From Escherichia phage AV126: DNA of 64,000 nt. The position numbers were made by a program, and so were the translations under genes. Location of the stretch: the sequence record OR352956.1; one strand, written 5' to 3'. The notes beneath the pieces were generated by a model. It was not told where the DNA came from. It saw only the letters and a list, made by a program, of their open reading frames with translations, and ran no database searches. Below, in pieces: positions 39,570 through 43,547 of this stretch. Position 1 is the stretch's first letter. The number at the start of each line of letters is the position of its first letter.

Positions 39570-39737
39570 TTATACCTCTAAATGGAAAGTTTCTTTAGAT
39601 ACAAAATCGTATCCACCTTTTTCAAGCCAGTCATTGTAAACCTCATCGGCTTGAGACTCTATCATAAAATACCGAGTGGTAACTTCGTCTCCGACAATAC
39701 GCACAATTTTATAGCAAATCATGATACCATTTCCCAT
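39570..39737 (-). CDS. small hypothetical protein (55 aa)
   Basis: Below ORF-track cut-off; fills gap; MGNGIMICYKIVRIVGDEV... Confidence 0.35.
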   Translation of the reverse strand: MGNGIMICYKIVRIVGDEVTTRYFMIESQADEVYNDWLEKGGYDFVSKETFHLEV

Positions 39738-39928
39738 TAATCTTCCTCCAGATCAATTTCATTATAGCAATGTATGCAGTAGCCATCGTTGTGCATATGC
39801 TGTTCATAAGACATATCTTTACCACAAGACCAACAACGAATATCACCATCGTCCCATTCACGTTCTTCTTCGCCTTCAAATGCATCTGGTAGGTAAGGCA
39901 TACCAAGACAATGTAAATCGTAATGCAT
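39737..39928 (-). CDS. small zinc-ribbon protein
   Basis: 63 aa from ATG at 39928 (AGGAGGAG SD); CWSCG...CIHCY cysteine pairs; longer ORF-track start 40033 overlaps polymerase gene and is rejected. Confidence 0.5.
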   Translation of the reverse strand: MHYDLHCLGMPYLPDAFEGEEEREWDDGDIRCWSCGKDMSYEQHMHNDGYCIHCYNEIDLEED

Positions 39929-39941
39929 ATCTCCTCCTATA

Positions 39942-39959
39942 AAGGGGCAGAAGCCCCTT
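39942..39959 (-). other. RNA hairpin between polymerase and downstream gene
   Basis: AAGGGGC-ttct-GCCCCTT on - strand; followed by SD rather than U-tract. Confidence 0.3.
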
Positions 39960-39977
39960 ATAAAACAATATGTTAGA

Positions 39978-42900
39978 TCAATGACAGGATGCCCAGGAAT
40001 TACCCACGTCATATCCGGCAGTAAGCTGAACATTAAGATTGTAAAATTCTCCAGCCTTAGTAACAGCTAAAGCAGCAAGTTCACCTGCCCGACTATAGGC
40101 TGTAAACCATCCACCTTTGGGAGATTCATGAATGTTAGCCCAAATTTGCCCTGTCTCTTTTTCCTTATTATGCTTCCATTCTTCAACTTTAGCAAGGCAT
40201 TCTTTATCAATTTTCTTTTGTTCTTCAGGATCGTCTACTTTCTTCCAACCTAATGATTCAGGTGAAAACCATTTAAATTCTACAAGGCTACGAGAAACTT
40301 CAAGCTGGGCTTCATCGTGATATGCAATCATTTGTTGCACGAAGTCTTTATTCTTCCAGTCATCTTTAAAGAAGTCAACACTTAGCCCTTCTTCTTCGAT
40401 CATGTCGTCATAAATAACCATTGCACGTTTAGCACAGATAACCCCACCACTTTGGAACAGAGAGTTAAGAATCGCGTGAGCAGAACGAGTAGGAACCTTA
40501 CGACCGTCAATACCCAAAACATACTGTTTACCAGTCTTAACCCAGAAATCGTTTAAACGTTCTTTAAGACGCGCCAGTGGGAATGCAGCTTCCCAGAAAG
40601 CATCGAACACCAGTTGCCCTGTGTATTTATCGCTACCAATTGTTTTAGCAACCTTGTCTGCTTGAGCGCCGTACGTGCAGTTACCTGTCAACGTGATAAA
40701 ACCATTCTGACGCATAACAAAAGATTCATTCTTGGTTGAGATACAGAATACATCTGTTACTCGTGAAAAAGCTTTTGTCAACCTCTGTCCTGAAATAGTT
40801 TGTCCGTTATTGATTGCCAACGTTAACATGCCATCTTTTTGAACAGAACCATACGCAATATTACCTGTCATATTGATAGCCAAAGAAACAGCGTCGCTAA
40901 TCTTACCTTTCTTTTGACGGATAACAAGACTGCCGTTTGGACGCTTATGACCATCTGCCATCCAGAATGCCTCTAAGAATGCTTCCAACACAGCTTGACC
41001 TTGATTAGCAATTAATGTAGACCAGTCCACTTCGTGCTTATTTTGACCCACTTCAACGCCACATTTAGTCAAAAATTCCCTAAACTGACTCTTATTAGGA
41101 CGTAATGAATGCATCGTTCCAGATACATACTCGTCAAATGTGAAGATATCTCCCACAGCCTCACGTGCTTCTTCTAAGAATTTTTTCTCATCTTGATCTA
41201 CCGTGACTGTAATACCCATTACTTTATTTCTGGCTTTGCTAGACCACTTATAGTAGCCATCCGAAAGAAGCCAGCCTAAGAAACGACCTTCTTCCACTGT
41301 TAGAGTAGACACCACACCAGATCGCCCTGCTGCAATTATGTTTGACTCCGAGTTTAAATCCTCTGTAGATCTACGCTCCACTTGCATATACTTAACATTG
41401 TTACCATCTGATCGCATAGTTTTTCTCTGTGCGTTAATCCACATATGATCGTTAGTAACTTCTACTTTGAACCACTTGTTACCGAGAGAGACAACTTCTG
41501 CATCGTTATAGTCCCACAGCTTAAGAATAGGGGTATATTCGTAAAGAGCGGTGTGAGTATTATAAGATAAAACTTCATCCCCTACAAAAAGATCTTTACG
41601 TTTCTTCCAACCCGTTCTTGTTAACACTTCCGTATTATCTACAGGTACACAACCGTATTTAACGCTCTTAGCAGGACCACGTTCAAACTTACGTCCAATA
41701 ATATCAGTAATATGTTTTGCCATCATAGTATGCACATCGTTTGGTTTTTCTAACAGAAGTGCATTACAGTAAGCATGATCAGGATTATCATATCTCCACG
41801 TATAATGCGACTCAATCTTCGCCTCTAATGAATCAAAGTCATAACCAATCTGGAAGTATTTAGGAACCTCTACACCAAACAGGTTACGCATCTGCCATCC
41901 AAACAAAGAGGTAACACGAGGAATATTGGCTACAGACCTATGCTTCATACGAGAGGTTGCTGCATCGCATGTAGCCGCTGGCGTAGGTATACGTCCATCT
42001 GCACGAACTGCTGCCAAGAAACCTTTGTTGTATTCTTGATCTTCTTCGTCTTCTTCCCAATCAGCACCGCCACCTAAAATAGAGTTCCTACGATGCTTAT
42101 ACGTTAAGTATTCTACAATCTGTGTAGCATAAGGAAACTTCTCACCCAAAGCTTGCAGGTTAGGACAAATTTCTTTTTCCTGACCTTTGGTAAAACATGG
42201 GTTAGTCAATACTTTAAGACCGCGACCTTTACCTTTTGCTATACGCTCTTGAATCTTCCTTTCCAAGGTTTCCGGTGTGCACTCCAGATGATCACAACGG
42301 TCCTGACAAAAATTAGAAGATAGAGTTTGCTCAACGTAAGCTCGAATACCTTTCTGAAGTTCTTCCTCACTCTTTTTAATCTTGGTGCCAGATTTAAGAG
42401 TCAAATCTTTATCTTTATATTCCGATGGTACCCAACCTAATCCTACAAGCCAGTTTTTAATATGGGTTGTATCGTTTAATGTTGCAGGGATGTGAGGATC
42501 ACATAAAGGCTCATCTGCTGCAACTGGCAGTTTCCACTCTTTCCCCAACATAACTAACCACCAATCTCCATCCCTCTCTTCCAAATGACCATCATGTTTC
42601 TTAGCAAAATTGATCATATGGTTAGTTGGCTCTAAGTTCTTTTTAATTTGCAACTTAGGTGGAATAAAAGCCTTAAGATAGCCTTTTGTTGCTGGTTTAG
42701 GTGGCAAAATAGGCTCAACGAGTAAACGAAGACGCTCCATTTCTGCATCCAAAAAAGCAAGGTTCTCTTCTGCTTGCTTCATGTTAAAAGCAAACCCACG
42801 GTGTTCCTGGCGCGTGATAATGTCTGCTACACGTTGTTCAAGTTCAAATGGACCTTCCCATTTATCATAATCCCCCCATTCTTCCATGAGGTAATTATAT

Positions 42901-43547
42901 ACACTTGTGTTGGCTTTGTTATCATAGATACAGTAATAAAGCATATCCGCAGCAAAAGTCTTAAATCGATCTTCTTCTGGAATCTCTTTACGGAAATCTA
43001 TTTTTACATCCCCACCTGCCTTTCGAGAAAGTGCTGCCAAACTATGTCCTGATTTGCCCTCAATCTTTCGATCTGGGTTTAACACTTTACTCAAAATCAA
43101 GGAGTCAATAAGTTTTACCTTATTTTTGCCCCACGTATTATATTTAACACTGTAATCTAATCCATAAAACAGTTTTGTAGCCAACCAGTCGTAGTTGATA
43201 CCGTTGTGAGCCACAGCCATTTCAACCAGATATTCAGGCTTGTCTTTAAAATAACCTTCATGATTAATAAAGTCTGGGAAATCTTTTAGTTGAAAATGCG
43301 TGTAATCTTGCGCCACATACTCTTTAAGAACATATGTGTATTTACCATCTGACTCTTCATAAGGACGCCCATCAAAGATGTATTTAGGGCCATCGTGGAA
43401 AGCTACTATTTCTCCTGTTTCATGGTTCTCTAAGACAATACAGTGCATTTGAAATGTGTCTTTGAGACGATAAGGACTAGCTAAATAATCAATAGTGTCA
43501 TTATTCAACAATCCGTTTGCTTCAATATCCCATGTAAACTTACTCAC
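39978..43547 (-). CDS. family A DNA polymerase with 3'-5' exonuclease domain, interrupted by an intein
   Basis: 1189 aa; exo motif WDIEANGL; motif A-like DFDSLEAK; motif B split (RGPAKSVKYG / CTYGAQADKVA) by 324 aa insert. Confidence 0.85.
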   Translation of the reverse strand: MSKFTWDIEANGLLNNDTIDYLASPYRLKDTFQMHCIVLENHETGEIVAFHDGPKYIFDGRPYEESDGKYTYVLKEYVAQDYTHFQLKDFPDFINHEGYFKDKPEYLVEMAVAHNGINYDWLATKLFYGLDYSVKYNTWGKNKVKLIDSLILSKVLNPDRKIEGKSGHSLAALSRKAGGDVKIDFRKEIPEEDRFKTFAADMLYYCIYDNKANTSVYNYLMEEWGDYDKWEGPFELEQRVADIITRQEHRGFAFNMKQAEENLAFLDAEMERLRLLVEPILPPKPATKGYLKAFIPPKLQIKKNLEPTNHMINFAKKHDGHLEERDGDWWLVMLGKEWKLPVAADEPLCDPHIPATLNDTTHIKNWLVGLGWVPSEYKDKDLTLKSGTKIKKSEEELQKGIRAYVEQTLSSNFCQDRCDHLECTPETLERKIQERIAKGKGRGLKVLTNPCFTKGQEKEICPNLQALGEKFPYATQIVEYLTYKHRRNSILGGGADWEEDEEDQEYNKGFLAAVRADGRIPTPAATCDAATSRMKHRSVANIPRVTSLFGWQMRNLFGVEVPKYFQIGYDFDSLEAKIESHYTWRYDNPDHAYCNALLLEKPNDVHTMMAKHITDIIGRKFERGPAKSVKYGCVPVDNTEVLTRTGWKKRKDLFVGDEVLSYNTHTALYEYTPILKLWDYNDAEVVSLGNKWFKVEVTNDHMWINAQRKTMRSDGNNVKYMQVERRSTEDLNSESNIIAAGRSGVVSTLTVEEGRFLGWLLSDGYYKWSSKARNKVMGITVTVDQDEKKFLEEAREAVGDIFTFDEYVSGTMHSLRPNKSQFREFLTKCGVEVGQNKHEVDWSTLIANQGQAVLEAFLEAFWMADGHKRPNGSLVIRQKKGKISDAVSLAINMTGNIAYGSVQKDGMLTLAINNGQTISGQRLTKAFSRVTDVFCISTKNESFVMRQNGFITLTGNCTYGAQADKVAKTIGSDKYTGQLVFDAFWEAAFPLARLKERLNDFWVKTGKQYVLGIDGRKVPTRSAHAILNSLFQSGGVICAKRAMVIYDDMIEEEGLSVDFFKDDWKNKDFVQQMIAYHDEAQLEVSRSLVEFKWFSPESLGWKKVDDPEEQKKIDKECLAKVEEWKHNKEKETGQIWANIHESPKGGWFTAYSRAGELAALAVTKAGEFYNLNVQLTAGYDVGNSWASCH
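40680..41651 (-). mobile_element. intein with double-LAGLIDADG-type homing endonuclease in polymerase motif B
   Basis: Insert begins CVPVDNTEVLTRTGW, has TNDHMWI block B-like motif and FLGWLLSDGYY / FLEAFWMADGHK, ends FITLTGN before Cys +1; in frame, 972 nt. Confidence 0.7.

Follow-up and report, generated by a model that had tools for sequence, protein, structure and literature searches.

How does a phage copy its genome when the gene for its DNA polymerase is split, in frame, through the essential active-site helix? The question is raised by Escherichia phage AV126, of which we analysed a stretch of 64,000 nucleotides (nt) from sequence record OR352956.1 (the window), and by an insert of 324 codons at 40680-41651 within motif B of its family A polymerase gene. 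From the letters alone, a preliminary description had read this insert as a selfish intein with a LAGLIDADG homing endonuclease splitting motif B of the replicative polymerase, and that identification is upheld here by the presence/absence polymorphism of the insert, by fold and profile matches and by the footprint of its transfer. We consider it very probable that the intein is active and recently mobile, such that the precursor would splice itself to a polymerase of 865 residues and the freed endonuclease would home into intein-less alleles. Inteins with LAGLIDADG endonucleases are well known in phage replication genes, and a sister intein in the same gene is already in GenBank; what is modestly new is the motif B element itself, which its closest relatives in GenBank and RefSeq leave unannotated and which Pfam, NCBIfam and PHROGs do not detect. 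A literature search found no paper describing this polymerase intein, and the paper on the isolation of phages ukendt, nieznany and nepoznato is silent on inteins.

An in-frame insert in motif B of the polymerase gene

The only long open reading frame (ORF) across these coordinates in the ORF list lies on the minus strand (39978..43547) and encodes the polymerase precursor of this Phapecoctavirus, 1189 residues plus a stop, with Pfam and PHROG matches on either side of the insert. Translation of 40680-41651 on the plus strand is full of stops, while on the minus strand the same positions give 324 open codons that begin CVPVDNTEVLT and end VFCISTKNESFVMRQNGFITLTGN (also given as NGFITLTGN). The insert is preceded by ERGPAKSVKYG and followed by CTYGAQADKVAKTIG (CTYGAQADKV), and the two flanks, once joined, read R-x-x-x-K-x-x-x-Y-G|x-x-Y-G, in agreement with the motif B (O-helix) pattern R-x-x-x-K-x-x-x-[YF]-G-x-x-Y-G of family A polymerases such as T7 gp5, Klenow and Taq. 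The Pfam DNA_pol_A alignment runs no further than residue 634, and matches to several PHROG polymerase families start again between residues 925 and 966. From the alignment with the phAPEC8 polymerase, the N-extein (41652..43547, minus strand; residues 1-632, ending AKSVKYG) comprises the exonuclease domain and the palm and fingers as far as the first half of motif B. The C-extein (39978..40679, minus strand; from CTYGAQ to the stop), delimited by the ORF, the same alignment and the PHROG match, holds what is left of motif B and the remainder of the polymerase domain.

Evidence for an insertion comes from polymerases that lack it. The phAPEC8 polymerase is 98% identical to that of the window in protein and about 95% in nucleotides, its gene of 2598 nt equals 3570 minus 972, and the protein alignment shows a clean gap of 324 residues between KYG and ITYG. 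Like phAPEC8, most of the other phages in the group, ESCO13, tuntematon and many others among them, have 2598-nt genes that match at 95-96% nucleotide identity in two pieces. The earlier placement of a 324-residue in-frame insert exactly between KYG and CTYG is confirmed by the translation and by the exact absence of 972 nt in phAPEC8; the alignments with intein-less polymerases contain no collinear segment at this position, phAPEC8 and others showing an exact gap, and the in-frame insertion is absent from close orthologues. The phAPEC8-type empty site reads AAGTATGGT|ATTACCTATGGT, and the empty polymerase site of phAPEC8 and tuntematon contains AAATCTGTTAAGTATGGT|ATTACCTATGGTGCACAA. All three intein-less alleles that were read have Ile (ATT) at the +1 position, compared with Cys (TGC; 40677..40679, minus strand), the residue with which the C-extein begins in the window.

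A search with the joined flanks found the uninterrupted site in 126 phage records, none closer than 83% to the flanks of the window. The motif B intein was found in only 11 phage records, namely those of ukendt, nieznany and nepoznato (each in GenBank and in RefSeq), that of phiWec187 (Justusliebigvirus) and four identical-looking 'Campylobacter phage' records. In the Phapecoctavirus phages ukendt, nieznany and nepoznato, the polymerase gene is 98.8% identical in nucleotides to that of the window, and their records label the whole 3570-nt coding sequence (CDS) just DNA polymerase, with no intein annotated. The closest records say 'DNA polymerase I' for a gene of 3.57 kb, from which the mature enzyme would have 865 residues and an intein-borne Ile-to-Cys change in motif B.

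Five 'Campylobacter phage' records (MG065639, MG065645, MG065656, MG065689 and MG065650; host C. jejuni) have polymerase genes 86-95% identical to those of E. coli Stephanstirmvirinae phages, and the exact intein is present in four of them; the C. jejuni host label looks doubtful.

The insert also resembles an intein in profile and in fold. An intein profile search returned Hint-domain matches and the PI-PkoII endonuclease, with the curated Pfam Hint models short of significance. Against the sequences of the Protein Data Bank (PDB), the insert alone matches the endonuclease domain of the PI-PkoII intein (E 0.001), and a family profile made from the insert and seven metagenomic relatives matches the Hint domains of a bacterial intein-like domain (BIL; 1.3e-5), the Spl DnaX mini-intein (2e-4) and the class 3 AceL NrdHF intein (0.008). 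An AlphaFold2 model made from the same small alignment has a mean predicted local distance difference test score (pLDDT) of 90.1 and a predicted template-modelling score (pTM) of 0.89, with beta-rich N- and C-terminal parts around a middle domain of helices and sheet. The best Foldseek matches of this model in the PDB are all endonuclease-containing inteins, TliVMA (2.4e-15) being followed by PhoVMA, PI-SceI, PI-PfuI and PI-PkoII, over a range of E 2e-15 to 4e-9 and template-modelling (TM) scores of 0.56-0.68 on the query. The middle domain further matches the free-standing endonucleases I-DmoI, I-Tsp061I and I-SceI (E 1e-5 to 2e-4 over about 177-189 alignment columns).

A Hint fold, a LAGLIDADG fold with two LAGLIDADG helices each bearing a catalytic acidic residue, and the boundary and block residues Cys1, His69, Asn324 and Cys+1 are all found in the insert. 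Judged from the model, the architecture is that of a Hint splicing domain that holds, between block B and block F, a nested LAGLIDADG homing endonuclease. The endonuclease domain (about residues 108-283; 40803..41330, minus strand) was delimited from the secondary structure of the model, the PI-PkoII match and the I-DmoI-type fold matches. Its first LAGLIDADG motif, FLGWLLSDGYY (residues 124-134; 41250-41282, minus strand), carries the acidic residue Asp131, and the second, FLEAFWMADGH (residues 225-235; 40947-40979, minus strand), carries Asp233. Conservation was scored column by column over 325 positions in 162 relatives of the intein, and the acidic residue is kept in 112 of 112 members for motif 1 and in 158 of 162 for motif 2. 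The class 1 inteins TliVMA, PhoVMA, PI-SceI, PI-PfuI and PI-PkoII have the same layout but are larger (366-537 residues), with 9-16% identity to the window intein. An additional region for DNA recognition is present in some of these inteins, and Asp at F:4 with His at G:6 is, as far as is known, common to all of them.

A lineage-specific insertion domain retained by the mature polymerase, or a group I intron that happens to be in frame, might be entertained given that the curated profile libraries give no significant Hint match and that the homologous insert of Pseudomonas phage KIL1 is annotated as a joined, intron-like CDS. We regard both as extremely improbable and reject them. The insert is exactly absent from polymerases of 95-96% nucleotide identity and breaks the motif B helix; in fold and in boundary residues it is like an intein, and the same module is found in unrelated hosts such as a GH5 cellulase. 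An intron, moreover, would have no need of a reading frame that is open, and conserved at the protein level, throughout the insert.

Mobility of the intein and the flanking tracts

The history of the insertion can be read from two comparisons, for which mismatch maps were made from pairwise global alignments, a three-way DNA alignment by MAFFT having misplaced the intein-less allele over the large gap. The polymerase of phiWec187 is 85% identical in protein to that of the window, and the DNA is about 20% divergent along its whole length except for one tract. Between gene nt 1669 and 2888 (40660..41879, minus strand), the two differ at 2 positions in 1,220 nt, against about 240 expected at the background divergence; this tract consists of the intein together with 228 nt upstream and 20 nt downstream of it. 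The window and the intein-less phAPEC8 are about 1% divergent outside the tracts that flank the insert, and their differences, which are mostly synonymous, cluster from about 350-375 nt upstream up to the N-terminal junction and for about 65 nt past the C-terminal junction. On these alignments, the mosaic is best read as the footprint of double-strand-break repair from an intein-bearing donor, i.e., homing with co-conversion of the flanks, and it would show that the intein was transferred recently between two phage genera. This would provide a clean natural case of intein homing between genera in which the co-conversion tracts can be measured, and the preservation of such a textbook footprint in the window is modestly new.

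We propose that, in a mixed infection, the endonuclease of the freed intein would cut intein-less polymerase alleles, and that repair off the intein-bearing genome would copy the intein with flanking polymerase sequence, including the TGC codon that turns the native Ile into Cys+1. The Cys+1 codon falls inside the co-converted tract; the intein would therefore bring its own downstream nucleophile, and the spliced polymerase would therefore carry an Ile-to-Cys change in motif B. We infer that the endonuclease is active, the population footprint being consistent with site-specific cleavage and gene conversion.

An intein that splices but whose endonuclease is dead, persisting by vertical descent and occasional general recombination, appears quite improbable. 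Endonuclease decay does occur in the family, as about 50 of the 162 relatives, the phi92 and PaulScherrer motif A intein among them, have lost LAGLIDADG motif 1, and the scarcity of the motif B intein (11 records against 126 with the uninterrupted site) would also suit such a view. In the window intein, however, both LAGLIDADG motifs and their acidic residues are intact and the endonuclease domain models well. Furthermore, the intein is 99.8% identical across two genera whose polymerases are about 20% divergent, and the short flanking tracts are centred on the insert. It is because of this near-identity and the insert-centred tracts that recent endonuclease-driven gene conversion is favoured over a dead endonuclease.

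Splicing residues and the class of the intein

Phages whose insert-bearing polymerase gene is 98.8% identical to that of the window were isolated on E. coli MG1655 although the essential active-site helix is split, and for this reason, together with the demonstrated splicing of the homologous Bethlehem gp51 intein, the precursor is expected to splice. The features that had first suggested an intein, Cys1, the block B-like TNDHMWI, two LAGLIDADG-like motifs and Thr-Gly-Asn before Cys+1, are all present in the translation. The Cys1 codon (41649..41651, minus strand) supplies the block A nucleophile, and block B is formed by T66-N-D-H69-M-W71 (41439..41456, minus strand; TNDHMWI being residues 66-72), with Thr at B:7, His at B:10 and Trp at B:12. 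Block F is V-F-C303-I-S-T (40734..40751, minus strand), in which Cys303 (codon 40743-40745) occupies F:4 and pairs, in the alignment, with the Cys at F:4 in the intein of Bethlehem gp51. Block G is T-L-T322-G323-N324 (40680..40694, minus strand), with Thr, Gly and Asn at G:5, G:6 and G:7.

These residues are characteristic of the whole family. An exhaustive profile search returned 349 cluster representatives with E<=1e-30, a number that rises to 1,947 with E<=1e-10, and 153 complete inteins of 243-374 residues were delimited in the best 150 proteins. Cys1, Thr B:7, His B:10, Trp B:12, Cys F:4 and Thr-Gly-Asn at G:5-G:7 are shared by 141 of the 153, of which 70 have Cys at the +1 position, 37 have Thr and 34 have Ser; the Thr-Gly-Asn end alone is found in 143. 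Among the 162 relatives, conservation reaches 99.4% for Trp71, 97.5% for both His69 and Thr66, 96.3% for Cys303, 95.7% for both Gly323 and Cys1, 93.8% for Asn324 and 90.7% for Thr322, which places all eight splicing-residue columns within the 18 most conserved of the 325 positions.

The preliminary description had also pointed to the Gly in place of the penultimate His, and had taken the atypical C terminus as a hint of unusual splicing chemistry. The Gly is real, but the hint does not hold: 96% of the 162 relatives share it, and the RDF intein of Bethlehem gp51 splices completely in E. coli with its native penultimate Gly, while a Gly-to-His change slowed splicing (PMC5050341). Residues other than His at this position are documented in phage class 1 inteins (PMC5050341). 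The Bethlehem gp51 intein (Cys1, TANHRV, VWC, LTGN|S) matches the family profile end to end (hhalign probability 95.8%, E 7e-9, 294 columns), so aligned that its F:4 Cys and its T-G-N fall on the corresponding residues of the window intein. The two share Cys1, TxxH, Cys at F:4, a Thr-Gly-Asn end and a nested LAGLIDADG endonuclease. The gp51 intein differs in its Val at B:12 and Ser+1, in its host protein (an RDF and metallophosphoesterase) and in its actinobacteriophage origin, and the identity is about 22%. The penultimate Gly is thus a known functional variant of phage inteins and the rule in this family, with no sign of an impaired or exotic C-terminal chemistry.

The more unusual feature had gone unnoticed: the class 3 triplet Trp-Cys-Thr (WCT) co-occurs with Cys1. 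Trp71, Cys303 and Thr322 form this triplet alongside the class 1 features Cys1 and TxxH, in a register supported by the alignments with Bethlehem gp10 and gp51. The WCT triplet defines class 3, in which the Cys at F:4 is obligate and attacks the N-terminal junction in place of residue 1 (PMC2807308; PMC5222942), and it has been stated to be exclusive to class 3, for which a separate origin was argued (PMC7664689). In the original survey, 34 of 37 WCT inteins were without a residue-1 nucleophile, the other three having Ser1 or Cys1 (PMC2807308); WCT inteins with a residue-1 nucleophile were thus already noted in 2010, and our mechanistic point is incremental. A large later survey by Hoffmann et al. 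picks class 3 inteins by the absence of an N-end Cys together with a Cys at C2:4 (PMC7891396). Measured against such definitions, the window intein has the Cys1 and the block B TxxH (Thr66, His69) of class 1, and its Cys at residue 1 sets it apart from a class 3 defined by the lack of a residue-1 nucleophile. It is without the class 1 assisting residues, which are typical rather than obligatory, having Cys303 instead of Asp at F:4 and Gly323 instead of His at G:6.

The comparison with recognised class 3 inteins is similarly divided. The MP-Be 'DnaB' prototype (Bethlehem gp10 terminase), Msm DnaBi1 and AceL NrdHF share with the window intein the WCT triplet, an association with phages and, in most members, a LAGLIDADG endonuclease, and AceL NrdHF lacks both assisting His residues, as does the window intein. 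Class 3 inteins start with a non-nucleophile (Pro, Ala), usually have no Thr at B:7, and usually carry His at G:6 and Ser or Thr at +1, in contrast to the Cys1, Thr B:7, Gly G:6 and Cys+1 of the window intein. The gp10 prototype (Pro1, SHGW, KCI, THN|T) matches the family profile weakly (hhalign probability 65.7%, E 5.8e-5), over the N-terminal part and the endonuclease only, and this alignment puts Trp71 on Trp67 of the prototype. AceL NrdHF is among the profile matches in the PDB at E 0.001-0.008, where class 1 inteins are found too, and canonical class 3 DnaB intein structures are absent from these matches. When a profile of the splicing domain only was compared with the PDB, class 1 and class 3 relatives were not told apart, and just the N-terminal half could be aligned.

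We propose the following mechanism. The polymerase would be translated as a precursor of 1189 residues in which the motif B helix of the active site is broken after Gly632, and the insert would then excise itself and join KYG to CTYG, giving the 865-residue enzyme. The C-terminal steps would be standard, with cyclisation of Asn324 without the usual penultimate His and attack by Cys+1. At the N-terminal junction, Cys1 with Thr66 and His69 would most likely initiate in class 1 fashion, and Cys303 (F:4), with Trp71 and Thr322, would be an indispensable second thiol, serving either as a class 3-like relay branch point or as a residue that coordinates the two junctions. This combination is favoured because Cys1 and Thr B:7 equal the WCT residues in conservation within a family that has diverged to less than 30% identity. 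In canonical class 3, residue 1 has drifted, and the same would be expected here of a residue 1 that could be spared. Since Cys1 and Cys303 are both conserved across the whole family, neither cysteine is expected to be dispensable. The splicing chemistry is what we infer from the residues.

In a pure class 3 pathway, Cys303 would attack the N-terminal junction, a block F branched intermediate would form, the N-extein would pass to Cys+1, and Cys1 would be dispensable. We hold this as a tentative possibility that is nearly as likely as class 1 initiation with an essential Cys303. It draws support from the conservation of Trp B:12, Cys F:4 and Thr G:5 (99%, 96% and 91%), the triplet that defines class 3 and includes its obligate Cys (PMC2807308), and from the absence of both the block F His and the penultimate His, as in AceL NrdHF. 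The alignment of Trp71 with Trp67 of the prototype and a definition of class 3 by which no residue-1 nucleophile is needed (PMC5222942) point the same way, as does the first intein of the protein P0089, which seems to be without Cys1 yet keeps W-C-T-G-N. Set against this pathway is Cys1 itself, present in 96% of relatives that have diverged below 30% identity, where canonical class 3 has no nucleophile at residue 1. Likewise kept, at 97.5%, is Thr B:7, a residue that in class 1 inteins loads the nucleophile at residue 1 and that class 3 inteins have as a rule lost (PMC6195587); the prototype match is weak and partial, and class 3 DnaB structures are missing from the PDB profile matches.

At the other extreme, plain class 1 splicing would leave all N-terminal chemistry to Cys1, with Cys303 a tolerated substitute for Asp and with Trp71 and Thr322 structural. 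The full class 1 set of Cys1, TxxH, terminal Asn and Cys+1 is present, the closest characterised relative, the Bethlehem RDF intein with its Val at B:12, is treated as class 1 in the literature, and WCT grafted onto a class 1 intein conferred no class 3 activity (PMC7664689). Nevertheless, we judge this reading somewhat unlikely, as mere tolerance of Cys303 would not account for its 96% conservation alongside Trp B:12 (99%) and Thr G:5 (91%) in 162 divergent relatives, and in the original survey WCT was almost confined to inteins without a residue-1 nucleophile (34 of 37; PMC2807308). Plain class 1 splicing with a passive F:4 Cys is the reading least compatible with the conservation.

More speculatively, the two cysteines may act in relay, a Cys1 thioester passing to a block F branched intermediate on Cys303 and from there to the +1 residue, which would make the family a distinct group between class 1 and class 3. 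We consider this doubtful. If true, it would explain the joint conservation of both cysteines, Thr B:7 and the WCT triplet, and this large family, with 349 clusters at E<=1e-30 and phage PolA as its usual carrier, would form an evolutionary bridge from class 1 to class 3, the supposed absence of which has been used to argue for a convergent origin of class 3 (PMC7664689). Whether the block F Cys acts as a nucleophile beside Cys1 bears on the origin of class 3 inteins.

Several observations weigh against an active and recently mobile intein initiated by Cys1, and they are best considered together. On the insert, Pfam gives LAGLIDADG_3 at E 0.0015, below the cut-off, and Hint at E 0.09, neither being significant; NCBIfam gives only spurious weak matches and PHROGs none. 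Guanine-plus-cytosine (GC) content puts no foreign mark on the insert (0.399, compared with 0.394 and 0.420 in the flanks), and the same is true of third codon positions (GC3). Missing, too, are the residues that usually assist, namely Asp at F:4, the His of block F and the His at the penultimate position. The mosaic tract could in principle stem from ordinary recombination rather than from endonuclease-driven homing. Tori and Perler (2011) reportedly found class 3 behaviour in those WCT inteins they tested that have Ser1 or Cys1, which would argue against an essential Cys1. Finally, class 3 has later been worded such that a residue-1 nucleophile is 'not required' (PMC5222942).

The wider family and related elements

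Most relatives lie at motif B of family A polymerases, in the typical context K-x-x-x-Y-[AGS]|[CST]-x-Y-G, with an insertion point that moves by 1-4 residues between polymerase clades. Some polymerases of the wider family have two inteins, and a few relatives are found in unrelated host proteins, e.g., a GH5 cellulase. The family is abundant in phage polymerases and unrecognised by Pfam, NCBIfam and PHROGs, so that routine phage annotation misses it; a very large, apparently uncurated family of phage-polymerase inteins that uniformly mixes class 1 and class 3 signatures is, again, modestly new. In cultured phages, relatives are found in the polymerases of Pseudomonas phages KIL1-5, with 32% identity and a position four residues earlier in motif B. 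Together with those of the metagenomic P0003, P0006, P0008 and others, these motif B inteins, which occupy identical or neighbouring positions in motif B, belong to the same family (28-71% identity) and have the same residue signature. They differ from the window intein in the site shift of 1-4 residues and in a +1 residue that may be Cys, Ser or Thr, and many have a reduced endonuclease. In KIL1 (L006, NC_030934), CDS BH774_gp099 is annotated as a two-piece, intron-like join, and the insert is an open, in-frame intein running from Cys1 to TGN|C.

There is also a related intein that competes for another site, at a distance of 50 codons. In phi92, ESCO5, PaulScherrer and about 30 other Stephanstirmvirinae records, an intein of 245 residues lies beside motif A (SHY|CWRY), 50 codons upstream, and it is already annotated 'intein' in GenBank MZ501100 (BASEL collection). 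It shares with the motif B intein the gene, the phage subfamily and a signature of Cys1, TADHRW, VWC and ITITGN|C, but it occupies another site, is shorter, retains only the second LAGLIDADG motif and is 32% identical. Among the records examined, no polymerase gene carries both the motif A and the motif B intein.

In the window, the motif A site is empty (41799-41804, minus strand; codons Tyr582|Thr583; compare L004:2441-3298) and reads SHY-T-WRYDNPDH, compared with SHY-C-WRYEPEPH in phAPEC8. This site lies inside the motif B co-converted tract, and therefore invasion by one intein would overwrite the site of the other, or the other intein itself.

Homologues of the intein also occur as free-standing genes, in Vibrio phage VnaP (L007:1474-2544) and in P0004, P0005, P0023 and P0030, with 343-356 residues and about 28-31% identity. 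They retain Hint-like ends and both LAGLIDADG motifs and are without the splicing residues, having no Cys1, Gln at B:10, Ser, Asp or Gly at F:4, and neither a terminal Asn nor a +1 nucleophile. The VnaP gene stands among polymerase fragments annotated as pieces II-V, and it looks like an intein-derived, free-standing homing endonuclease in a split polymerase gene.

Two further variants depart from the common signature. P0098, P0101, P0115 and P0119, in the motif B context RQxAKxx|..|TF(K/R)PLYGG, end in Ser-Gly-Gln rather than Thr-Gly-Asn, and this subgroup would use a C-terminal Gln. P0089 is a GH5 cellulase with two inteins, of which the first (residues ~128-462) appears to start YPGW|PVPQSTEILT, without Cys1, and keeps T-H-W, Cys at F:4 and T-G-N|C, a class 3-like configuration. 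The Cys1-less start could also reflect a decayed copy or an alignment artefact.

Around the polymerase gene itself, a scan for promoters and terminators across the gene gave only background levels. A Cys-rich ORF of 98 residues (39737-40033, minus strand) overlaps the final 56 nt of the polymerase gene; because phAPEC8 annotates only shorter genes downstream of its polymerase, the start of this ORF is probably an internal ATG.

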